Below, piece after piece: positions 7,801 to 28,761 of a DNA stretch of 64,000 nucleotides; positions within the stretch are counted from its first letter, which is position 1, and every line of letters starts with the position of its first letter. Source of the DNA: Nitrosopumilus sp. (GTDB lineage Archaea > Thermoproteota > Nitrososphaeria > Nitrososphaerales > Nitrosopumilaceae); contig OZ245040.1 of NCBI GenBank assembly GCA_965224195.1, positions 1,600,001-1,664,000 on the forward strand, read 5' to 3'. The position numbers and the translations under genes are program-made. The notes under the pieces were generated by a model. That model saw nothing but the letters and a program-made list of their open reading frames with translations. It was not told where the DNA came from and searched no databases.

Positions 7801-10800
7801 TAATGTGTACTCGTAGATTTTTTCAGTATTATAACCTACAACAAACATCTTTGTTCCGTCTGTGTTAAATGCCATGCCTGTTGGATGCGTGTCCTGTGTG
7901 CCTACTGAGACAGAGCTATTTGCATAGGAGGCAGTGGATAAGTCAAAGGGAGTAGTTAATGTGTACTCGTAGATAGCATTATTGGCAGTACCTGCAACAA
8001 ACATCTTTGTTCCGTCTGTGTTAAATGCCATACCTGTTGGATGCGTGTCCTGTAAAGCTACTGGGTAATGGCGTACAAAGGTGGGATTGGATACGTCAAA
8101 GGGAGCATCTAATGTGTACTCGAAGACCTTCTCACTTTGATAACCTACAACAAACATCTTTGTTCCATTTGTGTTGAATGTTACGCTTTCTGGATCCGAC
8201 TCCCTGCTATTTACTGAGAAAGAGTTGTCTGTATAGGAGGCAGTAGACAAGTCAAAGCCCTCGTTTGCTATTATCTCATCAAAAGTTACTGCCAAAACTC
8301 CGGTTTCCTCATTTAGTGTTGCTGAATCAAATGTTGGCGGGATATTATCAGCAGCAAGTGGTGGCGGTGTGCCTGCCCCACCATCTACTACTACTGCAGG
8401 TATATTAAAGGAGGCAGATACAGGAGATGATTCCACAAAATAGTCTGGTCCAATGATCACTGCATATACATGTACATCGTATGACTCACCCGGTGTCAGG
8501 CCTGTTGCCGTATATGAGGTGTCATCTGCAGTGTCGTCGAGTTCAGAATCGTCAGAACTAATGACAGTCAATTGATAACTCACATCATCAATGGTATAAT
8601 ACTCATTGAAATCCACTGTAGGTGCAGCCCAAGTGATTTCAGCGGCTGTGCCGTTTATGACATTGACTAAAAGGTTGGTTGGCGCATCAAGTGGTGGAGG
8701 TAGCGGTATATCAAAGGATACAGCTGCGGCAGGTTGGGAGGACAGAACGGTTGAATCTGACAACAAGGCTTTTGCCTCAACTGTTACCTCATAAGATTTG
8801 CCCACTATCAGGTACGTCGTATGCTCGGTAGTGCCAGCAGGCACGGTATGCTGTACGCTGGTGCCAGCAGCAACATCAATGACATACACGATATAGGATA
8901 CGGAATTAATATCATAGAATGAATTGGCCGGTATTACAGGTGCAGTCCAGATGATGTCAACGGCTGTGGTAAATACATCCACTGAAAGGCCAGTTGGCGC
9001 AGCAAGTGGTGGTGGTACTGCTGCTACACTGTTAGTTACTGCAATGATATTGTCATATGATGCGAGAATCTCATTACCTGAAACATCAGATACAGCTGCT
9101 GCCAAGATGTCCAGTTCTGGGGTAGTCAATGCAATTACTGACTGTAATTGAGGTGCAGTCATCTTGATCTCTATGGAGGTGCTGTTGCCGACAGTTTCAA
9201 TGCTGGCACTGCTCAGTACCGTGCCGGTACCATTAACACTTCCCGACTCACTGATGAGCAGTTTGGATAGATCAACTGGAGTAGACAATGCATACTCGTA
9301 GACACGATTATGTTGAGCACCTACAACAAACATCTTTGTTCCAGCAGGGTTGAATGCCACGCCTCTTGGAGACGTGTCCTGTGTACCTACTGTGAGAGTG
9401 TCTGTATGGGAGACATTGGATAAGTCAAAGGGAGTAGATAATGTGTACTCGTAGATAGCATTATTGGTACTACCTGCAACAAACATCTTTGTTCCAGCCG
9501 GGTTAAATGCCACGCCTTCTGGACCCGTGTCCTGTGTACCTACTGAGAAAGAGCTATTTGCATAGGAGGCAGTGGATAAGTTAAAGGGAGTAGATAATGT
9601 ATACTCGTAGATTTTTTCAGTATTATAATCTACAACAAACATCTTTGTTCCGTCTGGGTTAAATGCCACATCATGTGGAGACGTGGCCTCTGAAGATACT
9701 GAGAAATTGCGTGTATGGGAGACATGGGATAAGTCAAAGGGAGTAGTTAATGTGTACTCGTAGATAGCATTATTGGTATTACCTGCAACAAACATCTTTG
9801 TTCCATTTGTGTTAAATGCCATACCTGTTGGATGCGTGTCCTGTAAAGCTACTGGGTAATGGCGTACAAAGGTGGGATTGGATACGTCAAAGGGAGCATC
9901 TAATGTGTACTCGAAGACCTTCTCACTTTGATAACCTGCAACAAACATCTTTGTTCCATTTGTGTTGAATGTTACGCTTTCTGGATCCGTGTCCTTGTTA
10001 TCTACTGAGAAAGAATTGTCTGTATAGACGGCAGTAGACAAGTCAAAGCCCTCGTTTGCTATTATCTCATCAAAAGTTATTGCCAAAACTCCGGTTTCCT
10101 CATCTAGTGCGGCTGACTCGAAGGTTGGCGGGGTATTGTCAGCAGCAAGTGGTGGCGGTGGTGATACTACCGCTACACTGTTAGTTACTACAATGGCATT
10201 GTCATATGATGCGAGAATCTCATTACCTGAAACATCAGATACTGCCGCTGCCAAGATGTCCAGTTCTGGAGTAGTTAATGCAAGGGCTGACTGTAATTGA
10301 AGTGCAGTAAGCTTGATCTCTATGGAGGTGCTGTTGCCGACAGTTTCAATGCTGGCACCGCTCAGTGCCGTGCCGGTACCATTAACACTTGCTAACTCAC
10401 TGATGAACAGTTTTGACAGGTCAACTGGAGTGGTTAATGCATACTCGTGGATATTCCCGCCATCATTACCTACAACAAACATCTTTGTTCCAGCAGGGTT
10501 AAATGCTACATCTGCCGGAATCTCGTCCCGTGCAGATACTGAGAAAGTGCCTGTATGGGAGACATTGGATATGTCAAATGGAGTAGTTAATGTGTACTCG
10601 TAGACATTGTCACTACCATAACCTACAACAAACATCTTTGTTCCAGCCGGGTTAAATGCCACACCTGACGGAGTACCCTCCCGTACCCCTATTGAGAAAG
10701 TGCCTGTATGGGAGGCAGTAGATACGTTAAAGGGAGTAGATAATGTGTACTCGTAGACAGCACCATTATTAGAACCTACAACAAACATCTTTGTTCCAGC

Positions 10801-11403
10801 CGGGTTGAATGCCACGTCTTCTGGATACGTGGCCTCTGAAGATACTGAGACATTGCGTGTATAGGAGGCAGTGGATAAGTTAAAGGGAGTAGTTAATGTG
10901 TACTCATTGACCTTTTCACTGTCAGTACCTATAACAAACATCTTTGTTCCAGCTGGGTTAAATGCCACGTCTTCTGGGGTGTCTTCCTTTAAAGATACTG
11001 AGAAATCGCGTTTATAGTCGGAGGAGGATACGTCAAAGGGAGTAGTTAATTCGTACTCGTAGATTTTGCCAGTACTAGAACCTGCAACAAACATCTTTGT
11101 TCCGTCTGGGTTAAATGCTACACCTGTTGGATCCGAGTCCTTGTTAGATACTGAGAAAGAGTTGTCTGTATAGTCAGCAGTAGACAGATCAAAGCCCTCG
11201 TTTGCGATTATCTCATTAAAAGTTATTGCCAAAACTCCGGTTCCCTCATCCAGTGCTGCTGACTCGAAGGTTGGCGGGGTGCTGTCAGGTGTAACTGCAA
11301 CAGGACTGCCCGGTGATGGTGCCTGTGCAGACACAAGAGACATGCCAGACAATGCAAGAACTGAGAAAAGCAAAAACAGCAAAAAGACACTCTTTGGAGC
11401 CAT
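1852..11403 (-). CDS. Giant secreted surface protein (3183 aa): four beta-propeller modules, several FN3 domains, Ala/Gln linker, C-terminal domain
   Basis: Signal peptide MAPKSVFLLFLLFSVLALSG; repeated blades FNPAGTKMFVVG..IYEYTLSTPFDLS; FN3 motifs APTNL..ITWTAP..TGLTPGESY. Confidence 0.85.
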   Translation of the reverse strand: MAPKSVFLLFLLFSVLALSGMSLVSAQAPSPGSPVAVTPDSTPPTFESAALDEGTGVLAITFNEIIANEGFDLSTADYTDNSFSVSNKDSDPTGVAFNPDGTKMFVAGSSTGKIYEYELTTPFDVSSSDYKRDFSVSLKEDTPEDVAFNPAGTKMFVIGTDSEKVNEYTLTTPFNLSTASYTRNVSVSSEATYPEDVAFNPAGTKMFVVGSNNGAVYEYTLSTPFNVSTASHTGTFSIGVREGTPSGVAFNPAGTKMFVVGYGSDNVYEYTLTTPFDISNVSHTGTFSVSARDEIPADVAFNPAGTKMFVVGNDGGNIHEYALTTPVDLSKLFISELASVNGTGTALSGASIETVGNSTSIEIKLTALQLQSALALTTPELDILAAAVSDVSGNEILASYDNAIVVTNSVAVVSPPPPLAADNTPPTFESAALDEETGVLAITFDEIIANEGFDLSTAVYTDNSFSVDNKDTDPESVTFNTNGTKMFVAGYQSEKVFEYTLDAPFDVSNPTFVRHYPVALQDTHPTGMAFNTNGTKMFVAGNTNNAIYEYTLTTPFDLSHVSHTRNFSVSSEATSPHDVAFNPDGTKMFVVDYNTEKIYEYTLSTPFNLSTASYANSSFSVGTQDTGPEGVAFNPAGTKMFVAGSTNNAIYEYTLSTPFDLSNVSHTDTLTVGTQDTSPRGVAFNPAGTKMFVVGAQHNRVYEYALSTPVDLSKLLISESGSVNGTGTVLSSASIETVGNSTSIEIKMTAPQLQSVIALTTPELDILAAAVSDVSGNEILASYDNIIAVTNSVAAVPPPLAAPTGLSVDVFTTAVDIIWTAPVIPANSFYDINSVSYIVYVIDVAAGTSVQHTVPAGTTEHTTYLIVGKSYEVTVEAKALLSDSTVLSSQPAAAVSFDIPLPPPLDAPTNLLVNVINGTAAEITWAAPTVDFNEYYTIDDVSYQLTVISSDDSELDDTADDTSYTATGLTPGESYDVHVYAVIIGPDYFVESSPVSASFNIPAVVVDGGAGTPPPLAADNIPPTFDSATLNEETGVLAVTFDEIIANEGFDLSTASYTDNSFSVNSRESDPESVTFNTNGTKMFVVGYQSEKVFEYTLDAPFDVSNPTFVRHYPVALQDTHPTGMAFNTDGTKMFVAGTANNAIYEYTLTTPFDLSTASYANSSVSVGTQDTHPTGMAFNTDGTKMFVVGYNTEKIYEYTLTTPFDLSSSSYANRSFAVGSQDTSPTGMAFNPDGTKMFVAGFQHDNIYEYTLTTPFDLSNVSHTDTLSVGSQDNSPRGVAFNPAGTKMFVVGTGSDRVHEYALTTPVDLSKLFISESGSVNGTGTALTGASIETVGNSTSIEIKITAPQLQSVIALTIPELDILEAAVSDVSGNQILALYDNAIAVTNSVAAVLPPPPPLAADNTPPTFESAALDEETGVLAVTFDEIIANEGFDLSTADYTDNSFLVASQDNSPQGVAFSTNGTLMFVVGNQNDSIYEYRLTAPFDVSTAAYADRSFSIHSQDTSPYDVAFNPAGTKMFVVGHTSENIYEYTLSSPFDLSTAAYADRSFSIHSQDSSLYGVAFNPAGTKMFVAGYANEKIYEYTLSSPFDVSSSSYTRDFPVGTQDNSPYGVTFNPAGTKMFVVGSQYDRVYEYALTTPFDLSSSSYTRHFPVGTQDNSPNGVTFNPAGTKMFVVGAQHNRVYEYALTTPVDLSKLLISESASVNGTGTALSGASIETVGNSTSIEIKLTAPQLQSALALTTPELDIMAAAVSDVSGNAIAAALNNAIAVTNSVAAVPAPPLAAPTGLSVAVSGTTATITWTAPAIPANSFYDISNVSYLVNVTDTAAGTTVPYTVPAGTTTTHTATNLTPGKSYEVTVEATALLSDSTVLSSQPTAAVSFAVSEPPSLDAPTNLSVAVSGTTATITWTAPTVVVNEYYTINDVSYQVTVVDSDGSGAASSGSITGTSYTATGLTPGESYNVYVVAYAVVGSSYTVESVEVSASFNMPAAAVVVVDSGAGTPPSADQIKVQNLEIEKTGNKRVTLTWKAPANSGDKVLDYYSISYNCPATHGTKYTEIHTGFTSVSIDDLDINGICRFQVTPIYPSGGGVNSLIFPGGDGGVTDKGLSAPLKDIPFTETPKDIQLTAAMNGSDAIKVSWLSISSDIVFYELSLGDGDDSRGLVPLKDFKYEDDRPTSQIIKNVDPGRTYTIYLVLYNYEGSVHSTTFIKYTVPVDSIPPKLESAALDEETGVLTITFDEIIANEGLSTTAPFDLSKLFISESGSANGTGTALTGASIETVGNSTSIEIKLTESQRLAVIALTVPELDILEAAVFDVSGNQIVAALNNAIAVTNSVQPPSLDAPTNLLVNVINGTAAEITWTAPAIPANPFYDINSVSYLVNVTDTDAGTTVPYTISDGTTTTHTATNLIPGKSYNASVKALVLLDSGDDLESSATAVSFDMPTPPSLAAPTNLSVNVINGTAAEITWTAPAIPANSFYDINSVSYLVNVTDTAAGTTVPYTISDGSTTTHTATNLIPGKSYEVTIEAKALLSDSAVLSSQPTAAVSFAVSEPPSLDAPTNLLVSVINGTTATITWTAPTVDVNDFYTINNVTYQVTVVDSDGSGAAASSGSITGTSYTATGLTPGKSYNVFVVADAAVGSTYTVQSSAVSASFDMPAAADAQAADAQAAAAQAAADAQAAADAQAAAAQAAADAQAAADAQAAADAAAQAAADAQDMADDIVPAPVVVTVNAAMYNSTAILLTWTQPPSLEVTGYDLSWVSENANGDPHTGGYISLDGVIGGTLESHIFNNVNPGETYYFTLSVFFNVEGSPQPFGSYDVTYTVPDPNADPLKDHKKKRSTGSSNEHYKKPTFGLSHLTESLIVNDGMCLNDSCVDVVSWHTKYPEDKILIDTTNYLQAKMYTDNTLRYVEFFFGVPRPGDASNAEVFVKVSLSRNYTSPNNYDVVRIDTTDTEGLLDGTVTAATIQPSKCLSADAQPNCHTVTLQFDFNEAPIHRAFAIAAVDMDRRVHTNYFNDGFVVLGESLNPADMHHVANSGKYHSNEYASTHQLTLTQTDRAKNLWADQWGFAWTQNDHGTWLQLERDEFVRYQDDISSVMTRTNSNYDSMISHERDRALQHAKNMYGSIYDKPSSDLAEPVTIWIVPSPTNKLQNPEILDAMKLEEAKAMSYLQHMVRADMSRK
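3250..3430 (-). repeat. Coding 15/18-bp tandem repeat (QAAADA)n
   Basis: Repeated gcttgggcatctgctgct units. Confidence 0.9.
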
Positions 11404-12262: not shown

Positions 12263-15200
12263 CTATTTTTTCTTTATTATTTCAAAATAATAAACAATGG
12301 CAGCAAACACAACGACAAAAAATATTATTGAAATTATTAGTAATTCACTCATCGATAGTTTAGGTGCAACAGGTTCAGGTGTTGGTTCAGGTGTGTATAC
12401 AGGCTCTGGTGTGTATACAGGCTCTGGTGTGTATACAGGTTCAGGTGTGTATACAGGTTCAGGTGTTGGTTCAGGTGTGTATACAGGTTCTGGTGTTAGC
12501 TCTGGTGTGTATACAGGTTCCGGTGTTGGCTCTGGTGCTCTGACAGATGACGGCCTGTTGTCCCTGCCGACAATGTCTTTTAACAGTTCATCCAAATTCA
12601 TATTATCATAATATACTATGCCAGGCAGTTCCTTCAGTATGATGTGGCCATCACAGTATGCCGCAGCAGATTCTACCTGTGCCTGTTTTTGTGATTTGTC
12701 GTAACTTTTTATCGACATTACATTTTCAGAAAGCATCTCTAAACCCTCAAAGCTAAACGCATATAGAGAGATGGGTACGTGCACGGACTTGAGAAGATCC
12801 TTCATGCTGGCCTGGGATGTCATATCAATGCCAACATTGGATGGATGCCCGTCCAAGACAATGGAGGCGCCAAGGTTGTCCCCATATGTACCTGCAACTA
12901 GTACCACATCATTTTCCAGTCCGCACTGGTTGTACAGTAGTAGTATTGGACTCATTGTAAAACCTACAGAGCCGCTGCTGCTGCTGCCACGGTCAGCAGG
13001 CTGTGGTGTAGTAGGCTGTGGTGCGATGGGTTTTGGTGTGATGGGTTTTGGTGGCAAGGCATCCTCTGGTATTTCTTTAGGAGTGCTGTCAATTACTGCA
13101 GTATCTAGTTCAACACTGACTGCATCTTCAATGACAATAGGATCCCTTACGGCAAGTACTAGGCTGTCATCCTTCTTCACCACATCTGCACCATCTGATG
13201 TTGGGATGTCATCAGCTAGTGACTTGGTGTGCTGCACTGCCGTACCATCAGGTGTAGAGCTGGTATTCTTTGTTACATCCACGCCGTCTGATGTTGGAAT
13301 ATTGTCAGCCAGTGATTTGACATATTGCTTGGTTACAGAGATACCATCAGATGTTGGAATGTCATCAGCTAGTGACTTGGTGTGCTGCACTGCCGTGCCA
13401 TCAGGTGTCAAGCTGGTATTCTTTGTTACATCCACGCCGTCTGATGTTGGAATATTGTCAGCCAGTGATTTGACATATTGTTTGGTTACAGAGATATCAT
13501 CAGATGTTGGGGCTTCATCAGATGTAGATATGGCATATAGTTTCACTACATCTGCATTGTCCCTTGTTGGGATGTCATCAGATATGGATCTAGAGTACCG
13601 CTTTACCACATCTGCACCATCTGATGTTTTGATAACATCAGCTAGAGATTTTACATATTGCTTTGTTACATTCACATCATCAGATGTTGGGATAGTATCA
13701 GATGGAGATATGGCATATTGTTTCACTACATCTGCACCATCAGATGTTGGAATGGTGTCAGCTGGAGATATGGCATATTGTTTCACCACATCTGCACCAT
13801 CTGATGTTGGAATGGTGTCAGCTGGAGATATGGCATATTGTTTCACCACATCTGCACCATCTGATGTTTGGATGTCATCAGCTAGTGATTTGACATATTG
13901 TTTGGTTACAGAGATACCATCAGATGTTGGAATGGTGTCAGCTGGAGATATGGCATATTGTTTCACTACATCTGCACCATCTGATGTTGGAATATTGTCA
14001 GCTAGTGATTTGACATATTGTTTGGTTACAGAGATACCATCAGATGTTGGAATGGTGTCAGCTGGAGATATGGCATATTGTTTCACTACATCTGCACCAT
14101 CTGATGTTTGGATGTCATCAGCTAGTGATTTGACATATTGTTTGGTTACAGAGATACCATCTGATGTTTGGATGTCATCAGATGGAGATATGGCATATTG
14201 TTTCACCACATCAACTGCGTCCTTTGATGGAGCTGCATCAGATGGAGATATGGCATACAGTTTCACTACATCTGCACCATCTGATGTTTTGATAATATCA
14301 GCTAGAGACTTTGCATATTGCTTTGTTACATCTACTACATCTGATGTTAGGATAGTATCAGATATGGATTTGACATATTGTTTGGTTACAGAGATATCAT
14401 CAGATGTTGGAGCTTCATCAGATGTAGATATGGCATATAGTTTCACTACATCTGCATTGTCCCTTGTTGGGATGTCATCAGATATGGATTTGACATATTG
14501 TTTGGTTACAGAGATATCATCAGATGTTGGGATAGTATCAGCTGCTAAGCTGGCATACAGTTTCGCCACAACCGCACCATCAGATGTTGGGATAGTATCA
14601 GCTGCTAAGCTGGCATACAGTTTCGCCACAACCGCACCATCAGATGTTGGGATAGTATCAGATATGGATTTGACATATTGTTTGGTTACAGAGATATCAT
14701 CAGATGTTGGAATTGTATCAGATGTAGATATGGCATATAGTTTCACTACATCTGCATTGTCCCTTGTTGGGATGTCATCAGATGTAGATCTAGAGTACCG
14801 CTTTACCACATCTGCATCATCTGATGTTGGAGCTTCATCAGATGTAGATATTGCATATAGTTTCACTACATCCGCATCATCTGATGTTTGGATGTCATCA
14901 GATATGGATTTGACATATTGTTTGGTTACAGAGATATCATCAGATGTTGGGATAGTATCAGATGTAGATCTAGAGTACCGCTTTACCACATCTGCACCAT
15001 CTGATGTTTGGATGTCATCAGCTAGTGATTTGACATATTGTTTGGTTACAGAGATACCATCAGATGTTGGAATATTGTCAGATGGAGATATTGCATATTG
15101 TTTCACTACATCTGCACCATCTGATGTTGGAATATTGTCAGCCAGTGATTTGACATATTGCTTGGTTACAGAGATATCATCAGATGTTGGAGCTTCATCA

Positions 15201-18200
15201 GATGTAGATATTGCATACAGTTTCACTACATCAACTGCGTCCTTTGATGGAACTGCATCAGATGGAGATATGGCATACAGTTTCACTACATCCGCATTGT
15301 CCCTTGTTGGGATGTCATCAGATATGGATCTAGAGTACCGCTTTACCACATCTGCACCATCTGATGTTTGGATGTCATCAGATATGGATTTGACATATTG
15401 CTTGGTTACATCCACATCATCAGATGTTGGAATTGTATCAGATATGGATCTAGAGTACCGCTTTACCACATCTGCACCATCTGATGTTTGGATGTCATCA
15501 GATATGGATTTGACATATTGTTTGGTTACATCCACATCATCAGATGTTGGAATTGTATCAGATATGGATCTAGAGTACCGCTTTACCACATCTGCACCAT
15601 CTGATGTTTGGATGTCATCAGATATGGATTTGACATATTGTTTGGTTACATCCACATCATCAGATGTTGGAATTGTATCAGATATGGATCTAGAGTACCG
15701 CTTTACCACATCTGCATCATCTGATGTTGGAGCTTCATCAGATGGAGATATGGCATACAGTTTCACTACATCAACTGCGTCCTTTGATGGAATTGTATCA
15801 TATGGAGATATGGCATACAGTTTCACTACATCTGCATCATCTGATGTTGGGATGGTGTCAGCTGCTAAGCGGGCATACAGTTTCGCCACAACCGCACCAT
15901 CAGATGTTAGGATAGTATCAGATGGAGATATGGCATACAGTTTCACTACATCCGCATTGTCCCTTGTTGGGATGTCATCAGATATGGATTTGACATATTG
16001 TTTGGTTACAGAGATATCATCGGATGTTGGGATGGTGTCAGATGGAGATATGGCATACAGTTTCACTACATCAACTGCGTCCTTTGATGGAATTGTATCA
16101 GATGGAGATATGGCATACAGTTTCACTACATCTGCACCATCTGATGTTTTGATAATATCAGCTAGAGACTTTGCATATTGCTTTGTTACATCTACTACAT
16201 CTGATGTTTGGATGTCATCAGATATGGATTTGACATATTGTTTGGTTACAGAGATATCATCGGATGTTGGAGCTTCATCAGATGTAGATATGGCATATAG
16301 TTTCGCCACATCTGCATTGTCCCTTGTTGGGATGTCATCAGCTAGTGATTTGACATATTGTTTGGTTACAGAGATACCATCAGATGTTGGAGCATCATCA
16401 GATGTAGATATGGCATATAGTTTCGCCACATCTGCATTGTCCCTTGTTGGGATGTCATCAGATATGGATTTGACATATTGTTTGGTTACAGAGATACCAT
16501 CAGATGTTTGGATGTCATCAGATATGGATTTGACATATTGTTTGGTTACAGAGATACCATCAGATGTTTGGATGTCATCAGATATGGATTTGACATATTG
16601 TTTGGTTACAGAGATACCATCAGATGTTTGGATGTCATCAGATATGGATTTGACATATTGTTTGGTTACAGAGATACCATCAGATGTTTGGATGTCATCA
16701 GATATGGATTTGACATATTGTTTGGTTACAGAGATACCATCAGATGTTTGGATGTCATCAGATATGGATTTGACATATTGTTTGGTTACAGAGATACCAT
16801 CAGATGTTTGGATGTCATCAGATATGGATTTGACATATTGTTTGGTTACAGAGATACCATCAGATGTTTGGATGTCATCAGATATGGATTTGACATATTG
16901 TTTGGTTACAGAGATACCATCAGATGTTTGGATGTCATCAGATATGGATTTGACATATTGTTTGGTTACAGAGATACCATCAGATGTTTGGATGTCATCA
17001 GATGGAGATATGGCATACAGTTTCATCACATCAACTGCGTCCTTTGATGGAGCTGCATCAGATGGAGATATGGCATACAGTTTCATCACATCTGCATCGT
17101 CCCTTGTTGGGATGTCATCAGCTGGAGATATGGCATACAGTTTCATCACATGGTGCAAAGTAGACGCTATTGAATCCCTGATTACTGCCCTGTCAGACGC
17201 ATATACTGTGTGGTGTTTGACGGCTGATGCCGCATCCCTGATCACTGCCCTGTCAGACGCATATACTGTGTGGTGTTTGACGGCTGATGCCGCATCCCTG
17301 ATCACTGCCCTGTCAGACGCATATACTGTGTGGTGTTTGACGGCTGATGCCGCATCCCTGATCACTGCCCTGTCAGACGCATATACTGTGTGGTGTTTGA
17401 CGGCTGATGCCGCATCCCTGATCACTGCCATGTCAGGCACGGTGTAGTTTTTTCTAACCGATGCAGAATCCGATACGGTTATTTTGTCAGGTTCGGTTTG
17501 TACATCGACATACAATGCCAGGGGTGCATCATCAGAGTCCATCTTGTTCCCATGCATGTCATAGACGCCCCCGACAATGCGGAGTTCGTCCATAGAGTTA
17601 TCCAAAGTTCGTTTCAGTTGATTGTCAGTTAGCCTTATACGCAAGTCAGTACCGTCAGCAGACGTGGCTTTCTGTGCGCCATCAAGGGGCGCCTCCAGGT
17701 CTTTATGTGTCGCCCTTATTGTCATCTTAGAAAGATCAATTCTGGAGACATCTATTGCCTCACTGAATCTTACAAGCAGCTCGCCGGATCTCTTGTCCAG
17801 CATTGCCGGGATCATCGGCATGTGTGTAAGGTCAAATATGATCACGCTGTCTGACCCGCGAAAAGTGGCTGCGGCATATGTTCTGGGGCCGACAGTCATG
17901 ATTGAAACGTCACTTGCAATGGCTGTATCATCACCAATGTGCCGGTATGACATATACAGCCAGTCGCCGTATATCTTGTAATTTTTCGGATCTGTTATGT
18001 CAATTACCTGAATGCCCTGGTCTGTTTTGGCACTTGTAATGGCATAGACTTTGGAGTCAATACTGGCAACGGCGACTGCATTGTTGGCGTTTTCGGGCTT
18101 TGCAATGTGGGGAATAAACGCATGTGTCGTGAATGGCTTTTTGGGATCAGTAATGTCAATCATCTGAATGTTTTTGTCGCTGGCCAGATCCACTACTGCA

Positions 18201-19228
18201 TATGTTCTGGAGTTGATGCTTGTGATGGCCACGCCGATCGGCTTCTCCAGGTTGTAGCTGTGTGCAAGGGATGCAACCGGAGACGGGCGTCTGGGATCCG
18301 TGATATCGATTATCTGAATGCCGTTATCAGAGTATGCTGTTGCTACCATGTATGTTTTGGAGCCCATGGTTGTTGTAGCGATGGCATTTACTCCACCAAG
18401 CGTGTCAAAGCTGCCTGTATCATCACGTATGTATGCAATCTTTTTTAATATAAAATGCATATCCAGTATTGTAATGCGGCTGTCTTCTGTCTCAGTCACT
18501 ATCACATAGTCTTTCAAACCAATGGTAACAGTATCTATGCTTGTGGGGTTGTTAATTATAGGATTGTTAGAATCAGAATTAAGTATGCTGCCATAACCAA
18601 TTTTAGGAAGGTCTGGATGGGTAATATCTATCCCAAGTACTGGGAGAAGAGTGCTATTGTTAGTGACTAGGGCGTAGACGGAATCATCAACAGTAGTAAT
18701 GGTAACATCCATCGGATGTCCATATTGAGTAAAGTTTACAGACGATATCCGGAGGGGGTTTGCAGGATCAGTTATCTCAATTATCTGCATGCCTTTGTCA
18801 TCATGGGCTGCCACTATTGCATAAGTTCTATCTTTGATGCTGGCAATGGCTACAGTGTTGGCCCCGCCAAGCTTGTCAAAGCCTGATTGTCCGTCAGTCA
18901 TATTTGCAATTGGAAATGCTTTCCCAAGCAGAAAGGGTTTTGTTTTGTCATCCTGTGCCGGATGCTGCTGCGCATGTGCATTTTCAGGCATGTCAGGAAT
19001 GCAGAGAACTGCAATCATGATGCATGTTGCCGCAACGACACAGAAGATGCCAGGCTTGGACACAGGATGTCCTGCTGCCATGATTGCCCACCCCCCCCCC
19101 CCCGAATATTGGAGGCGCAGTGGCAGGGGCCTAAAATTCCGAGACGTGTATGGCAGTAAACCAGACAAAATAAAAAATATCATGCTTTGATAAAAAAGAA
19201 AAGGAGGTATTATGTTATGTGACACCAA
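12263..19228 (-). CDS. Giant membrane-anchored repeat protein: LVIVD-type propeller head, about 70 20-aa stalk repeats, PEP linker, C-terminal TM helix; real start probably ATG at 19081
   Basis: IQIIDITDP repeats; KQYVKSISDDIQTSDGISVT-type repeats; C-terminal LLIISIIFFVVVFAAIVYYFEIIKKK; signal peptide after MAAGHPVSK. Confidence 0.85.
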   Translation of the reverse strand: MVSHNIIPPFLFYQSMIFFILSGLLPYTSRNFRPLPLRLQYSGGGGWAIMAAGHPVSKPGIFCVVAATCIMIAVLCIPDMPENAHAQQHPAQDDKTKPFLLGKAFPIANMTDGQSGFDKLGGANTVAIASIKDRTYAIVAAHDDKGMQIIEITDPANPLRISSVNFTQYGHPMDVTITTVDDSVYALVTNNSTLLPVLGIDITHPDLPKIGYGSILNSDSNNPIINNPTSIDTVTIGLKDYVIVTETEDSRITILDMHFILKKIAYIRDDTGSFDTLGGVNAIATTTMGSKTYMVATAYSDNGIQIIDITDPRRPSPVASLAHSYNLEKPIGVAITSINSRTYAVVDLASDKNIQMIDITDPKKPFTTHAFIPHIAKPENANNAVAVASIDSKVYAITSAKTDQGIQVIDITDPKNYKIYGDWLYMSYRHIGDDTAIASDVSIMTVGPRTYAAATFRGSDSVIIFDLTHMPMIPAMLDKRSGELLVRFSEAIDVSRIDLSKMTIRATHKDLEAPLDGAQKATSADGTDLRIRLTDNQLKRTLDNSMDELRIVGGVYDMHGNKMDSDDAPLALYVDVQTEPDKITVSDSASVRKNYTVPDMAVIRDAASAVKHHTVYASDRAVIRDAASAVKHHTVYASDRAVIRDAASAVKHHTVYASDRAVIRDAASAVKHHTVYASDRAVIRDSIASTLHHVMKLYAISPADDIPTRDDADVMKLYAISPSDAAPSKDAVDVMKLYAISPSDDIQTSDGISVTKQYVKSISDDIQTSDGISVTKQYVKSISDDIQTSDGISVTKQYVKSISDDIQTSDGISVTKQYVKSISDDIQTSDGISVTKQYVKSISDDIQTSDGISVTKQYVKSISDDIQTSDGISVTKQYVKSISDDIQTSDGISVTKQYVKSISDDIQTSDGISVTKQYVKSISDDIPTRDNADVAKLYAISTSDDAPTSDGISVTKQYVKSLADDIPTRDNADVAKLYAISTSDEAPTSDDISVTKQYVKSISDDIQTSDVVDVTKQYAKSLADIIKTSDGADVVKLYAISPSDTIPSKDAVDVVKLYAISPSDTIPTSDDISVTKQYVKSISDDIPTRDNADVVKLYAISPSDTILTSDGAVVAKLYARLAADTIPTSDDADVVKLYAISPYDTIPSKDAVDVVKLYAISPSDEAPTSDDADVVKRYSRSISDTIPTSDDVDVTKQYVKSISDDIQTSDGADVVKRYSRSISDTIPTSDDVDVTKQYVKSISDDIQTSDGADVVKRYSRSISDTIPTSDDVDVTKQYVKSISDDIQTSDGADVVKRYSRSISDDIPTRDNADVVKLYAISPSDAVPSKDAVDVVKLYAISTSDEAPTSDDISVTKQYVKSLADNIPTSDGADVVKQYAISPSDNIPTSDGISVTKQYVKSLADDIQTSDGADVVKRYSRSTSDTIPTSDDISVTKQYVKSISDDIQTSDDADVVKLYAISTSDEAPTSDDADVVKRYSRSTSDDIPTRDNADVVKLYAISTSDTIPTSDDISVTKQYVKSISDTIPTSDGAVVAKLYASLAADTIPTSDGAVVAKLYASLAADTIPTSDDISVTKQYVKSISDDIPTRDNADVVKLYAISTSDEAPTSDDISVTKQYVKSISDTILTSDVVDVTKQYAKSLADIIKTSDGADVVKLYAISPSDAAPSKDAVDVVKQYAISPSDDIQTSDGISVTKQYVKSLADDIQTSDGADVVKQYAISPADTIPTSDGISVTKQYVKSLADNIPTSDGADVVKQYAISPADTIPTSDGISVTKQYVKSLADDIQTSDGADVVKQYAISPADTIPTSDGADVVKQYAISPADTIPTSDGADVVKQYAISPSDTIPTSDDVNVTKQYVKSLADVIKTSDGADVVKRYSRSISDDIPTRDNADVVKLYAISTSDEAPTSDDISVTKQYVKSLADNIPTSDGVDVTKNTSLTPDGTAVQHTKSLADDIPTSDGISVTKQYVKSLADNIPTSDGVDVTKNTSSTPDGTAVQHTKSLADDIPTSDGADVVKKDDSLVLAVRDPIVIEDAVSVELDTAVIDSTPKEIPEDALPPKPITPKPIAPQPTTPQPADRGSSSSGSVGFTMSPILLLYNQCGLENDVVLVAGTYGDNLGASIVLDGHPSNVGIDMTSQASMKDLLKSVHVPISLYAFSFEGLEMLSENVMSIKSYDKSQKQAQVESAAAYCDGHIILKELPGIVYYDNMNLDELLKDIVGRDNRPSSVRAPEPTPEPVYTPELTPEPVYTPEPTPEPVYTPEPVYTPEPVYTPEPVYTPEPTPEPVAPKLSMSELLIISIIFFVVVFAAIVYYFEIIKKK
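13180..17440 (-). repeat. 60-bp coding tandem array with mosaic unit types
   Basis: The 60-base lines align in register; eight identical consecutive units at 16501-16980. Confidence 0.95.
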
Positions 19229-24721: not shown

Positions 24722-25069
24722 TCATCCTAGCTTGTCATATATGATTTTTGTAAACTGCCCAACCATTGCAGGGTTTGGGGCCTCGTCATATTTCTTGAGG
24801 GCATGCAGGACCCTCTGATTAATTTTGTACAAGAGCACGGCATTTGCATCAATGACACTGCACGTCTCAGAATCCAAGTCGCCAGGCGGAGTTTTATTCT
24901 CAAGATCAATGCGTCTCTTCTCCATGTGAACCTGGTTGTCAGACTTGCCACAGCTCTGGTCTTTGCACCAGTGATCATTTACTTTGTATATGGCATCACC
25001 GGCTCTGATTTGTGCACTGCAGACCTTGCAGGTGCTGTCAAACCTTGAGGCCATAGATATGACAGACAT
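24722..25069 (-). CDS. Small Zn-ribbon protein, coupled to the upstream nuclease
   Basis: SRFDSTCKVC..IRAGDAIY..HWCKDQSC; start overlaps the nuclease stop at 25069. Confidence 0.7.
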   Translation of the reverse strand: MSVISMASRFDSTCKVCSAQIRAGDAIYKVNDHWCKDQSCGKSDNQVHMEKRRIDLENKTPPGDLDSETCSVIDANAVLLYKINQRVLHALKKYDEAPNPAMVGQFTKIIYDKLG

Positions 25070-25863
25070 TAGTTTATCCTCCTCAAAAACTCTAGATATT
25101 TTGTTGGCGAGTTGTCAGTTGATTCAGGTTCCCAAAACATTTGGATTGTCTCAAGCATCTCATCTGCATAGTCTGCAAACTTTACCTTGTGTATTCTGCA
25201 CTTTCCGTCCTCACATGACTCTATGATTACCAGATTTTCTATGATTTTTTTGGTGGAATCATAATGCATAAAGGCATACATTGCAGCTTGCAAATACCAC
25301 ACATCTCGTCGTTTGCCGTAACGAGGTTTTCGTGTCGTCTTGAAATCAATGACGGATGAGACGCCATCATATGCTGCAATAACATCTGCAGTTCCGGCCA
25401 CTTTGAGGGTGTCAGATTTCATAATTTCTTCCAGTCCCCGAACATCGGATATTTTATTGAGATGTTCTGAAATCTGTGATACATGTGCTGATGCAATCAG
25501 ATCCAGCTTTGTCACATTTAGTCCTGAAAGTTTTTCATAGAGAGCTTGATGTACTGCTGTTCCAATTTTTGCCGCATTGTTTCGTCTGTCCAACAAAGCT
25601 TCTGGTGAGAGATTTACATATCTCATCCAGGATTTGTCTTGCATCTCATTGAGCAGTGTTGTAGCTGATGCATATTTTGTGTCGCCACAAGTATAGTATC
25701 GGAACCGGTCCTCATTGTGTTGCAGTATTTTGCCAGCTGGCTGCACCTGGGCTGTCTTGCATGATGCATTGCAGGGAGAGTTTGATTTCTGTTCTCCTTG
25801 CAAGCTGACAGGATTGTACTCCAAAAGAAGATCGGTTCTCTTGTAACTTTGTGTTTGGTTCAT
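25069..25863 (-). CDS. PD-(D/E)XK exonuclease (phage/RecB/Cas4-like fold, without the Cas4 C-terminal Cys cluster)
   Basis: ASATTLL, GTAVH, AGTADVI..VIDFKT, LQAAMYA. Confidence 0.85.
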   Translation of the reverse strand: MNQTQSYKRTDLLLEYNPVSLQGEQKSNSPCNASCKTAQVQPAGKILQHNEDRFRYYTCGDTKYASATTLLNEMQDKSWMRYVNLSPEALLDRRNNAAKIGTAVHQALYEKLSGLNVTKLDLIASAHVSQISEHLNKISDVRGLEEIMKSDTLKVAGTADVIAAYDGVSSVIDFKTTRKPRYGKRRDVWYLQAAMYAFMHYDSTKKIIENLVIIESCEDGKCRIHKVKFADYADEMLETIQMFWEPESTDNSPTKYLEFLRRIN

Positions 25864-26153
25864 GTTATGGCATAGTTATAGTATAATATATATCTTATAT
25901 CATAACATATGGCATAGCAAATCATATATTACAATATATCTTATAGTGTAAATATGCCAATACGCATAATAAAATGTGAATGCGGACATGAATTTGCAAC
26001 CAAAAAAAATCCAAAGCAGGTCTTGCAATGCAGCAAGTGTGGGATTCATTTTTGCAGGTGTGAGAAAACCTGAATTTTTGAGATCAGTTGCTTATCCTTG
26101 TGAAAGTTCGATTCAAATTAGCTTTCTTTTTTCAAAGCTCCGTTTCCTACTTT

Positions 26154-26333
26154 GTTTTAATGGGGCCTCACCAGGAGGTGAGGAAATTATGAGCCTGTTT
26201 GCTTGCTCTAGCTTCAATATTTTGCTTCAATGGGACCGTAACTTTTTCGTTACGGAAAAGCGTTCTCTCTGAATATCACAACGTGGACAACGCAACACCT
26301 TCAATGGGACCGTAACTTTTAATTATGAATAAT
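26154..26333 (-). CRISPR. Orphan mini CRISPR array: 3 repeats of two types, 2 spacers; type I-G (I-U)-like repeat
   Basis: 26224 GCTTCAATGGGACCGTAACTTTTTCGTTACGGAAA; 26298 CCTTCAATGGGACCGTAACTTTT (then degenerate); 26154 GTTTTAATGGGGCCTCACCAGGAGGTGAGGAAAT; periods 70 and 74 bp; 7-bp stems. Confidence 0.75.
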
Positions 26334-26762
26334 ATGTAATTGAATCAGTTGACAGCTAGGTGTTAGTTCGTCTTTGAGCTAGCCTTTTTTTATTTTCTGA
26401 CAAACATTTTAATTCATATCCTATTCTGTATTTTACTAATTTTGCCAGGGGTTTAACACTTGTACACATCAGCTAAATCCCAAAAATATGATACGAACAT
26501 CAGGCATTGCTCTATTTTCTCAGAAACCATTCTAAAAGTATGGGGGTACAACAATTGTGCCTAACAGAATGATGCAATGCTACAACCACCAAGATATCTC
26601 ATCTAAACATGTATGATCTTTTTGTGTTATGAGTAAAAGTTAAATCCGTATCTAACCAAAATGATTTCGTGCCTATAATTTGGCTTTAGTTGTACGGGTT
26701 TAGCTTTTGTGCGTAAATTATATTTTTGACAAAAAATCATTAAATAATATGTCTATCTATAG

Positions 26763-27005
26763 ATGTACATGGAACAAACAAGCATTGCGGTTTCAAAAAA
26801 ATCAAAAGAGCAATGGGAGAAATTCAAGAACTACCCTGGCGAATCAATGGAGAACATGATTAATCGAATTCTAAAACACCAGAAAGAAGAGGATGAAGAA
26901 CTACTTACAGAAAAGGACATTGCTGAGATAAAAGCATCAGTTGCAGACATTGAACAAGGTAACTACATCACACAAGAACAGATGAAAAAAAAGTACGGAT
27001 TGTAA
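26763..27005 (+). CDS. RelB-like antitoxin
   Basis: N-terminal TSIAVSKK..PGESMENMINRIL; C-terminal ADIEQGNYITQEQMKKKYGL; directly upstream of RelE. Confidence 0.8.
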   Translation: MYMEQTSIAVSKKSKEQWEKFKNYPGESMENMINRILKHQKEEDEELLTEKDIAEIKASVADIEQGNYITQEQMKKKYGL

Positions 27006-27006
27006 T

Positions 27007-27267
27007 TTGACGGTTGTTTGGAAGGTCATTTATTCTGACAAAGCCCAAAAAGATCTGGATCACATTGGCTCAAACATTGCAAAAAAAGTAATCTTATTGA
27101 TGGATGAAATTGCATTGGATCCATATGGGTTGCTTGAAAAGATGACAAACTCACCATTTTACAAATTTCGTATTGGGCAATATCGGGGGATTGTGCATGT
27201 CATAAACGACAAACTCATTGTGCACGTATTCAAAATAAAACACCGCTCCCAAGTCTACAAAAAATAA
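27007..27267 (+). CDS. RelE/ParE-family toxin
   Basis: WKVIYSDKAQKDL...YKFRIGQYR..IKHRSQVY. Confidence 0.85.
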   Translation: MTVVWKVIYSDKAQKDLDHIGSNIAKKVILLMDEIALDPYGLLEKMTNSPFYKFRIGQYRGIVHVINDKLIVHVFKIKHRSQVYKK

Positions 27268-27549: not shown

Positions 27550-28761
27550 TTAGTTATGTTTTGCCGTCTCAATGTATAAAACAACAGCAATAAACACAAC
27601 TAGAAAAGATACTATTGAAATTATTAGTAATTCACTCATCGATAGTTTAGGTTCAACAGGTTCTGGTGTTGGTTCAGGTGTGTATACAGGTTCTGGTGTT
27701 GGTTCAGGTGTGTATACAGGTTCTGGTGTTGGTTCAGGTGTGTATACAGGTTCTGGTGTTGGTTCAGGTGTGTATACAGGTTCTGGTGTTGGTTCAGGTG
27801 TGTATACAGGTTCTGGTGTTGGTTCAGGTGTGTATACAGGTTCTGGTGTTGGTTCAGGTGTGTATACAGGTTCTGGTGTTGGTTCAGGTGTGTATACAGG
27901 TTCAGGTGTTGGTTCAGGTGTGTATACAGGTTCAGGTGTTGGTTCTGGTGTTGGTTCTGGTGTTGGTTCTGGTGTTGGTTCTGGTGTTGGTTCTGGTGTT
28001 GGTTCTGGTGTTGGTTCTGGTGTTGGTTCTGGTGTTGGTTCTGGTGTTGGTTCTGGTGTTGGTTCTGGTGTTGGTTCTGGTGTTGGTTCTGGTGTTGGTT
28101 CTGGTGTTGGTTCTGGTGTTGGTTCAGGTGTTGGTTCTGGTGTTGGTTCTGGTGTTGGTTCTGGTGTTGGTTCTGGTGTTGGTTCTGGTGTTGGTTCTGG
28201 TGTTGGTTCTGGTGTGTATACAGATTCTGGTGTTGGTTCAGGTGTGTATACAGATTCGGGTGTTGGTTCAGGTGTTGGTTCAGGTGCTCTGACAGATGAT
28301 GGTCTGTTGTCCCTGCCGACAATGGCCTTTAACAGTTCATCCAAATTCATATTATCATAATATACTATGCCAAGCAGTTCCTTCAGTATGATGTGGCCAT
28401 CACAGTATGCCGCAGCAGATTCTACCTGTGCCTGTTTTTGTGATTTGTCGTAACTTTTTATCGACATTACATTTTCAGAAAGCATCTCTAAACCCTCAAA
28501 GCTAAACGCATATAGAGAGATGGGTACGTGTACGGACTTGAAAAGATCTTTCATGCTGGCCTGGGATGTCACGTCAATGCCGGCATTGGATGGATGCCCG
28601 TCTAAGACAATGGAGGCGCCAAGGTTGTCCCCATATGTACCTGCAACTAATACCACATCATTTTCCAGTCCGCACTGGTTGTACAGTAGTAGTATTGGAC
28701 TCACAAGAAAAGAACCATCGTTTTGAACTAGGATATCAGCAATAGAAGTAAAAGAATACAA
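27550..28761 (-). pseudogene. Orphan duplicate of the C-terminal anchor region of 12263..19228 with an expanded PEPT linker
   Basis: 28703-28280 is nearly identical to 12954-12530; no signal peptide; IS end lies just upstream. Confidence 0.8.
27655..28285. repeat. 30-bp ([10 protein letters not shown]) and 12-bp (PEPT) coding tandem repeats
   Basis: ggttctggtgtt units and ggttcaggtgtgtatacaggttctggtgtt units. Confidence 0.95.

Follow-up and report, generated by a model that had tools for sequence, protein, structure and literature searches.

The locus described here lies in a 64,000-nucleotide (nt) stretch of DNA from Nitrosopumilus sp., called the window below (C1:1600001-1664000 of a 2.07-Mb genome with 33.6% G+C). 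Upstream of a gene for a PD-(D/E)XK exonuclease, the window contains a short series of elements resembling the repeats and spacers of CRISPR arrays, all on the minus strand. Such a unit, called a cassette here, is present in four copies in the genome (approximately 175-260 nt each), namely, copy A in the window (repeat R1 at C1:1626159), copy B at 1512928, copy C at 790507, and copy D at 793643. An earlier note on this DNA had described the unit in the window as a mini-array of three repeats and two spacers.

Elements of the cassette in the window

In the sense of a CRISPR RNA (crRNA), copy A begins with a half repeat, R3 (26298-26320), equivalent to a type I-G repeat's 3′ half. Next come spacer 2 (26260-26297), which is unique to copy A and has a canonical length (38 nt; host spacers range from 34 to 42 nt), and R2 (26224-26259), a complete type I-G repeat whose 7-bp stem is CCGTAAC/GTTACGG. 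Downstream of R2 are the pseudo-spacer psiS (26188-26223, 36 nt in copy A), called spacer 1 in the earlier note, and R1 (26154-26187), hereafter psiR2, an I-G-like repeat with a perfect alternative stem and an altered 3′ end, ATTAAAAC. The unit continues with an interval of 35 nt (26119-26153), which contains a small conserved hairpin (GCTTT...AAAGC), and ends with the repeat psiR3 (26089-26118), which is type I-B-like and shares the orientation of the I-G-like repeats. A T-rich run follows the hairpin of the interval on the plus strand, so that the two could be a terminator for a zinc (Zn)-ribbon open reading frame (ORF) described below.

The three repeats and two spacers are found where the earlier note had placed them and exceed chance: sites matching the first 19 nt of the host repeat with three or fewer mismatches occur exactly twice in the window, at R2 and R3, and in none of 100 shuffles. 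R3 is a half repeat only, as had been described, with 22 nt identical to R2 and two mismatches to the first 19 nt of the host repeat. A private G-to-A change is common to R2 and R3. R2 agrees with the repeat of the resident I-G array at 32 of 36 positions and with that of five other Nitrosopumilus genomes at 34 of 36; the loop variant of R2 and R3 (TTTTTC) is that of the five genomes, not that of the resident array. On its minus strand, R2 is matched to CRISPR-DR16 in Rfam below the threshold (17.2 bits, gathering score 35).

The two different perfect 7-bp stems claimed before can be read directly in the sequence. The arms of the psiR2 stem are CCTCACC (26166-26172, plus strand) and GGTGAGG (26177-26183), enclosing a loop of 4 nt that is shorter than the R2 loop. 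Compared with the R2 stem, four of the seven pairs are unchanged and three are altered on both sides, while the flanks ATTTCC and CCCCATT are unchanged relative to the I-G repeat. The R2 hairpin is present in the minimum free energy (MFE) fold, and the alternative stem is present in the MFE folds of both copies folded. The stability of the whole-transcript fold of the cassette is ordinary (z −1.5 and −0.04).

Near-identical direct repeats at the locus are limited to R2 and the half repeat R3, where a canonical array has at least three, and the sequence upstream of the unit does not resemble leaders of the arrays in the host or its relatives. Contigs of four sequencing runs aligned on 25600-26700 are mostly real-array contigs stacking on R2. 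One contig of run X3 matches 25600-26046 and then diverges, which hints at structural variation at the cassette edge.

Conservation among the four copies

The order of elements in the crRNA sense is the 3′ half of an I-G repeat, psiS, psiR2, the 35-nt interval, and the I-B-like segment. The upstream half repeat ends with ATTGAAGC (ATTGAAGT in copy D). The alternative-stem repeat is exact in three copies, and that of copy C contains 3 inserted nt. The psiS start of 20 nt (26204-26223 in copy A) does not vary among copies A, C, and D and agrees at 19 of 20 positions in copy B, while the remainder varies by GCAA-type insertions and deletions to give total lengths of 36-52 nt. Between copies A and D, all 34 positions of psiR2 and all 20 of the psiS start are identical, in contrast to 28 of 35 in the neighboring interval. 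Over the cassette core, copy A is 93-98% identical to copies B and D, with the maximum over psiR2 and the psiS start. Spacer 1 is therefore not the acquired spacer that the earlier note took it for, but a pseudo-spacer conserved in four genome copies.

Copies B, C, and D have a further stretch of approximately 65 nt in common at the upstream side, starting from a TTTAAAG box. In copy A, this place is taken by the complete R2, the unique spacer 2, and R3. At the other end, likeness of the tail to the host I-B repeat decreases from copy C (24 of 30 positions) through D (22/30) and B (20/30) to A (19/30); local alignment of psiR3 gives empirical p values of 0.00025 (copy C) and 0.00075 (copy A) against 4000 random genome segments. 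The description of the unit as an I-G mini-array is thus incomplete, since the cassette also holds an I-B-like repeat. This repeat at 26089-26118, the three further sites of R1 and spacer 1, the Zn-ribbon ORF, and the cas loci elsewhere in the genome had not been mentioned before.

A solo I-B-like repeat (25 of 30 positions) in the sense orientation is also observed at C1:795315-795344, approximately 240 nt downstream of copy D's Zn-finger gene, and the nuclease module of this copy is thus bracketed by I-B-like repeats. Directly upstream of copy D is an ORF fragment of 81 aa (C1:793191-793436), which by eye resembles the N terminus of a tRNA pseudouridine synthase (TruD-like). The cassette and the module may have displaced the rest of this putative TruD-like gene.

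Two further candidates were rejected. The 5′ edge of the cassette (...GATTGAAAC) is not supported as a relative of the third-array repeat of the host (local alignment, p = 0.34), and a small peptide ORF behind a GGAGGTGA motif on the plus strand differs by eye in frame and length in every copy.

CRISPR-Cas systems of the host

The genome contains cas loci at 714-723, 934-948, 1228-1236, and 1450-1456 kb, and the cassettes are located at 790, 793, 1513, and 1626 kb. The absence of cas genes from the window, noted earlier, is borne out: tblastn with 14 Cas proteins of this genome gives 25 rows, none of which falls within 1,600,001-1,664,000. The word orphan, which had been applied to the array, is appropriate within the window but not in the genome, which has four cas loci and three large arrays.

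The I-G array (C1:707140-713741) consists of 90 repeats that have the stem of R2 and end with ATTGAAGC on the minus strand. Beside it are genes for Cas4g/Cas1g, a short Csb2-like protein, a Cas3-extension protein, Cas3g, Csb2, and Csb1. Because this array matches R2 and is adjacent to I-G genes, the assignment of the repeats to type I-G and of the minus strand to the crRNA sense in the earlier note is correct. The type I-B locus has an array of 69 repeats at 941990-946540, the sense of which we infer from degenerate repeats at its left end and the ending ATTGAAAT. The third array starts from C1:1457181 and has at least 121 repeats of 37 nt ending with GATTGAAAC, beside genes for Cas7, Cas5, Cas3, and Cas1 (locus C1:1450600-1466000).

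A second, canonical I-G effector locus (C1:1228100-1236400) encodes Cas3g, Cas8g1/Csx17, Csb1, Csb2, and an N-terminal fragment of Csb2. The Csb2 genes of the two I-G loci are at C1:720317-721780 and C1:1229060-1230484. A k-mer scan finds no array beside it, and tblastn finds no Cas1 or Cas4 nearby. Its Csb2 has only 19% identity to the Csb2 beside the I-G array of the same genome, while it is 76-77% identical to the Csb2 proteins of genomes G009 and G014, which are encoded 11-12 kb from the arrays of those genomes.

Stretches of spacers are shared across the arrays: a 22-nt stretch of one third-array spacer recurs in a spacer from the I-G array, and two third-array spacers have 19-20 nt in common with ones in the I-B array. 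Thus, the arrays appear to hold a record of common invaders.

Origin of the alternative stem

The two stems differ in their occurrence as arrays, for which a genome search had been suggested. The CCGTAAC stem is that of the 90-repeat array, whereas the CCTCACC stem is found in this genome only in the four solo copies. The exact pattern of the CCTCACC stem with CCCCATT has no match in 185,579 species genomes. It is found in five metagenome stretches, of which three are arrays of 19, 18, and 5 repeats on G+C-rich contigs; in real metagenome arrays, the stem carries CCCCATTGAAGC. The fourth stretch (contig L042) has one full match at the contig end and the start of a further repeat, and genes for Cas4/Cas1g, Csb2, and Csb1, which are closer to the second I-G locus of the host than to the first, adjoin the array. 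Because metagenome arrays bear the CCTCACC stem, one of them beside I-G cas genes, this stem is, judged from these sequences, a natural I-G repeat type and not a decay product. The tie to a cas locus is found in this one metagenome contig.

In the five relatives with CCGTAAC arrays, Csb2 of the second kind is detected at 76-77% identity in two and at 40% in two, with no match in one, and Csb2 of the first kind is found in none of the five. The earlier note had suggested two Cas6 specificities, and the genome does contain two divergent I-G effector loci; relatives with the CCGTAAC stem also have the second kind of Csb2, however, so the two stems cannot be assigned to the two loci. The trailer ends of the five related arrays and of the host array are ordinary terminal repeats with point mutations, and none resembles psiR2 or psiS.

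The exonuclease/Zn-finger module and its neighborhood

The exonuclease gene (25069-25863, minus strand) encodes an MGME1/Cas4-like protein of the phage-exonuclease type and is multi-copy in the genome. The protein matches phrog_298 (3.3e-32), MGME1 in the PDB (4e-8), and weakly PF12705 (1.4e-4) and Cas4. The gene for a Zn-finger protein of 115 aa (24722-25069, minus strand) overlaps the nuclease stop codon; it has six copies in the genome at 90% identity or more and one at 63%. The Zn-ribbon ORF (25954-26073, plus strand; 39 aa) is convergent with the cassette and divergent from the nuclease gene, and an AT-rich palindromic region (25868-25959) is situated between the ORF and the nuclease gene. 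The ORF has no family match, and an analogous one is read in copy D. On the other side of the cassette, a gene for a ParE/RelE-family toxin (27007-27267, plus strand) follows its upstream partner (26763-27005, plus strand). The nuclease gene, the Zn-finger gene, and the divergent toxin pair are thus placed as had been described, with the array co-oriented with the nuclease gene on the minus strand approximately 290 nt upstream of it.

The nuclease gene has four full-length copies in addition to fragments, and the cassette is located upstream in the same sense in three of the four. The remaining cassette, copy C, precedes an ORF of 844 aa by approximately 30 nt and shares its orientation. The association of the array with the nuclease, raised in the earlier note, accordingly holds in this genome and is not seen for nuclease homologues elsewhere. 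The sequence of approximately 400 nt between the cassette and the nuclease gene cannot be aligned between copy A and copies B and D (approximately 40% identity), whereas the nuclease and Zn-finger genes in the same comparison are mostly 86-100% identical, with lower values in two segments. Since the intervening 400 nt is unalignable while both flanking blocks are conserved, the cassette and the nuclease gene stayed together across the replacement. In copies B and D, approximately 100 nt and an ORF on the opposite strand intervene between them.

Among 150 congeners, 112 have only a nuclease homologue of 39% identity or less, mostly as a single match, and this genome has one such homologue too. 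Of 209 database homologues (E ≤ 1e-10), seven are at least 76% identical, and the rest of the 120 listed are at most 40% identical. The homologues at 82-94% identity form seven clusters. No relative of the nuclease is found in IMG/VR. The module is multi-copy and mosaic and is surrounded by toxin-antitoxin genes, an AAA_15 ATPase gene, and insertion sequence (IS) fragments; repeats, IS fragments, and gene fragments are abundant around all four cassette copies.

The following features of the region are also observed. The segment 30474-32395 (minus strand) encodes a 493-aa AAA_15/AAA_21 ATPase (PF13175, 2e-23), followed by a 147-aa ORF, and the two may be a defense gene pair. With the ParE-family pair, ORFs for DUF3800 and DUF3892, and IS fragments, the region looks like a defense or mobile-DNA island. 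A 403-aa ORF (27550-28761, minus strand) consists largely of peptide repeats with a hydrophobic segment at the C terminus, and similar repeat DNA is found elsewhere in the genome at several sites. The DNA of two giant ORFs (1852-11403, 3183 aa; 12263-19228, 2321 aa; minus strand) shows strong internal repetition. A second contig, C2 (7434 bases, 31% G+C), has no copy of the nuclease gene, Zn-finger gene, or cassette and no strong spacer match.

Protospacers and solo repeats

The search for protospacers of both spacers, which the earlier note had proposed, gave none in the genome, in INPHARED phages, in PLSDB plasmids, or, by exact match, in IMG/VR; the plasmid search returned a single 30-nt match at chance level (E 0.08). 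Spacer 2 has no other match in the genome, and the 39-nt stretch that holds it has no exact match in IMG/VR.

Spacers of the host I-G, I-B, and third arrays have no near-complete match (at least 30 nt with few mismatches) outside the arrays and none on the module. The sole host-spacer matches of at least 30 nt (33-34 nt) are situated just past the searched stretch of the third array and probably belong to its continuation. Among 465 array spacers of relatives, one matches this genome strongly and another weakly (25 nt), neither on the nuclease loci. The strong match is that of a 40-nt I-G spacer of the related genome G014, which matches C1:858342-858381 with two mismatches and a 5′ flank of ...CTAC. 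This site is the only protospacer example for the I-G repeat family and is a candidate integrated element or shared invader.

Solo I-G repeats far from arrays are also found in two other Nitrosopumilaceae genomes (G105 C1:~1629300; OZ242274.1). Both have a TTTAA-type box 40-50 nt upstream, and one is then followed by a hairpin. No homologue of the nuclease or the Zn-finger protein is encoded near them.

Proposed function of the cassette

We tentatively propose that the locus is a crRNA-like gene cassette yielding a fixed guide or decoy, not an adaptive array, and give this reading a probability of roughly 0.45. The earlier suggestion, that the locus makes a fixed guide or decoy RNA and relies for this on Cas proteins of the host, stays the best reading. 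The anatomy of the cassette, its copy number, its pattern of conservation, and the presence of matching host systems are observed facts from which the proposal starts. We infer that the cassette is transcribed, that its RNA is processed and loaded, and that it has an effect, in the following manner. The 3′ half of the upstream I-G repeat would supply the 5′ handle ATTGAAGC, and the invariant 20-nt start of psiS would follow this handle. The stem differing at three compensated base pairs would stop recombination between the two I-G-like repeats. The Cas5/Cas6 fusion of the host I-G system (Csb2) would cut the transcript at the two hairpins, and the released crRNA-like RNA with its fixed guide would then enter a host I-G effector complex. 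The complex might be directed to a partly matching site without cleavage, in the manner of CreA, CreR, or Cracr, although we regard this form of action as doubtful when taken by itself. That the RNA merely ties up Cas proteins as a repeat mimic, in the manner of Racr, is a distinctly weaker candidate. The cassette travels with the multi-copy exonuclease/Zn-finger module and would act for it.

The contrast in conservation and the re-paired stem argue, at the level of sequence, for a function. The host also has the machinery: besides the pair of I-G effector loci, there are two more type I loci, and its three arrays range from 69 to at least 121 repeats. Also in favor of the proposal are the same-sense I-B-like repeat of the tail, with its low p values, the flanking repeats that differ from one another as in known genes of this kind, and the solo I-G repeats with a TTTAA-type box in two other Nitrosopumilaceae genomes. 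A number of observations weigh on the other side, chiefly the distribution in a single genome, the decay in some copies, and the failure to find a target. The cassette is not found in any other genome searched, and IMG/VR gives no match. Among 60 relatives, only two have weak matches of 31-46 nt, over the I-B-like tail, and five I-G-bearing congeners match over the repeat part only. The case for conservation thus depends on four paralogues of a single repeat-rich genome, three of which (B, C, and D) are 87-100% alike throughout. In these three copies, the upstream repeat has a shortened stem that is unfolded in the MFE structure. The 3-nt insertion of copy C sits between the stem and the handle, and the handle of copy D ends in T. 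All cassettes are at least 77 kb from any cas locus. When the psiS start, two other intervals, and spacer 2 were searched in two cas loci, in 4 kb around each copy, and in the whole genome, only AT-rich matches at chance level were obtained. The best of these are 11-12 nt long and inside coding regions, none recurs at the same place across the four copies, and a single protospacer example is available for the protospacer adjacent motif. In copy B, a stretch of 12 nt that matches the psiS start and is located 626 nt upstream of psiR2 (approximately 580 nt from psiS) was considered as a target and rejected; it falls within coding sequence and has no counterpart at the other copies.

An extended form of the proposal makes the cassette a chimeric guide-RNA gene, in which I-G and I-B repeats and the alternative-stem repeat are parts of one transcript that resident Cas6-type enzymes process into a fixed guide, which serves a non-immune task for a selfish exonuclease module. 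The effectors could then include the second I-G locus, and the task could be the silencing of a host defense or a competitor. We consider this form unlikely as it stands.

Alternatively, the cassette may be a non-functional relic, an array piece (I-G, or I-G and I-B) that was captured once and then copied passively with the module by segmental duplication; this is quite possible, though we would put it short of an even chance. The capture could have occurred by recombination between a spacer and a protospacer on a mobile element, or by the break-up of an array in an IS-rich genome, and R3, spacer 2, and R2 in the window would be the least decayed remnant. The genome is indeed full of repeats, with IS and gene fragments around all four copies, and decay is visible in several of the repeat elements. 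The identity among copies B, C, and D carries little weight, since these arose by recent duplication. The loop variant of R2 and R3, with its closer agreement with the repeats of other Nitrosopumilus genomes (34/36 versus 32/36 for the resident one), is consistent with an imported or old array, and the searches made give neither a target nor a homologue elsewhere. On the other hand, decay should not yield a perfect alternative 7-bp stem through three two-sided changes, nor should it keep psiR2 at 34 of 34 positions while the next 35 nt differ at seven. Trailers of the host and five related arrays are merely point-mutated, unlike psiR2 and psiS. The place and orientation of the cassette by the nuclease gene were kept across an unrelated replacement of 400 nt, and copy C is a discrete unit in a third context. 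As a relic, the cassette would still document that arrays and a proliferating gene module exchanged material in a genome with four type I loci.

The same structure could be a promoter or terminator cassette whose likeness to CRISPR is merely historical. The hairpin and T-rich run directly after the Zn-ribbon ORF on the plus strand could end the transcript of that ORF, and the minus-strand TTTAAAG box, with which the conserved 5′ edge of copies B, C, and D starts, could drive the downstream gene; cassette copy C is approximately 30 nt before an ORF start. This explanation is improbable, as it fails to account for the highest conservation falling on a repeat-shaped hairpin, for the intact CRISPR flanks, and for the combination of handle and seed, and in copies B and D the cassette is separated from the nuclease gene by the 100 nt and the opposite-strand ORF mentioned above. 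A working mini-array, with which a mobile element acts against competitors through host Cas proteins and in which spacer 2 is recent and psiS older, appears to us very improbable. The arrangement of R3 and R2, which share their private G-to-A change and flank the unique 38-nt spacer, is what repeat duplication at acquisition should produce, and the host has Cas4/Cas1 adaptation genes. Yet searches of the genome, INPHARED, PLSDB, and, by exact match, IMG/VR give no protospacer for spacer 2 or psiS, R3 is without its 5′ half, no leader like that of real arrays precedes the unit, and psiS is fixed in four copies. The mobile status of the locus is also only a candidate one. The earlier note had called the locus element-borne, which goes further than the results allow: no integrase is found for the module, viral collections such as IMG/VR hold no relatives of it, and the spacers of relatives do not target it.

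Comparison with known systems

The locus departs from a canonical adaptive array in its repeats, which are not near-identical, in its spacers, which are not all unique and acquired, and in having neither a leader nor adjacent cas genes. It resembles the trailer of a normal array in that the last repeat is off-consensus and is followed by non-repeat sequence. Normal trailers have simple point changes, whereas the cassette has a completely re-paired stem, with a repeat of a different subtype after the unit. R2 and R3 themselves belong to the I-G repeat family, as judged from the hairpin, the CCCC-ATTGAAGC end, and the occurrence of this repeat beside Cas3g, Csb1, Csb2, and Cas4-Cas1.

The mini-arrays of the Portogloboviridae SPV1 and SPV2 reportedly lie in viral genomes without cas genes, have repeats that match those of the host, and carry spacers against related viruses. 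The window locus is similarly short, free of cas genes, and matched to host repeats. The SPV1 and SPV2 arrays target related viruses, in contrast to the window locus, for which no protospacer is found and one "spacer" is fixed in four copies.

According to PMC9458426, crRNA-like genes have degenerate, mutually different flanking repeats that protect against recombination and set specificity. Regulatory crRNA-like RNAs have a conserved seed and a free 3′ part, as described in that source and PMC10120712, and nearly all the regulatory mini-arrays described are in or by cas loci (PMC10120712). The cassette is like CreA and CreR in its spacer-like segment between two degenerate, differing repeats, in its fixed content, and in its conserved 5′ part, and its pseudo-spacer is flanked by degenerate repeats of a resident system, as in crRNA-like regulators. 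CreA and CreR, however, are in or beside the cas locus that they serve and match a cas or toxin promoter. The cassettes are not adjacent to cas loci but 77 kb to approximately 900 kb away, and they occur in four copies and with an exonuclease module. No promoter match is found for the cassette, and no CreT-like toxin was identified.

The Racr RNA anti-CRISPRs are repeat mimics of host CRISPR types encoded away from cas loci (PMC10651486), and multiplexed array-like units of such RNAs are reported on phages and plasmids (bioRxiv 10.1101/2024.10.29.618823). Racr and Cracr resemble the cassette in mimicking host repeats, sometimes with several in one array-like unit, and in being next to small genes. 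The cassette shows such mimicry for both subtypes (I-G-like, 32/36; I-B-like, p 0.00025-0.00075), and a union of I-G-like and I-B-like repeats in one unit is not described in the parts of the Racr and Cracr texts compared. Racr and Cracr are carried by bacterial phages and plasmids, whereas the cassette belongs to a chromosomal multi-copy module of an archaeon with only candidate mobility. The action of Cracr needs a match to a cas promoter, and none is found for the cassette.

In a word search of the open-access literature without supplements, nothing joins Nitrosopumilus or Thaumarchaeota with crRNA-like RNAs, ectopic repeats, or type I-G. If the chimeric form of the proposal were true, the cassette would give ammonia-oxidizing archaea their first crRNA-like regulator or anti-CRISPR RNA, which would also be the first one drawn from more than one subtype. 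The short cassette (about 230 nt) and the two defined Csb2 proteins make processing and binding testable in vitro or in a surrogate host. Repeat-like RNAs that reprogram or jam Cas proteins are known from cas loci, bacterial phages, and plasmids; a fixed guide or decoy from the present cassette would extend such RNAs to an ecologically weighty archaeon, in the form of a unit remote from cas loci and copied within the chromosome, which combines two co-resident subtypes.

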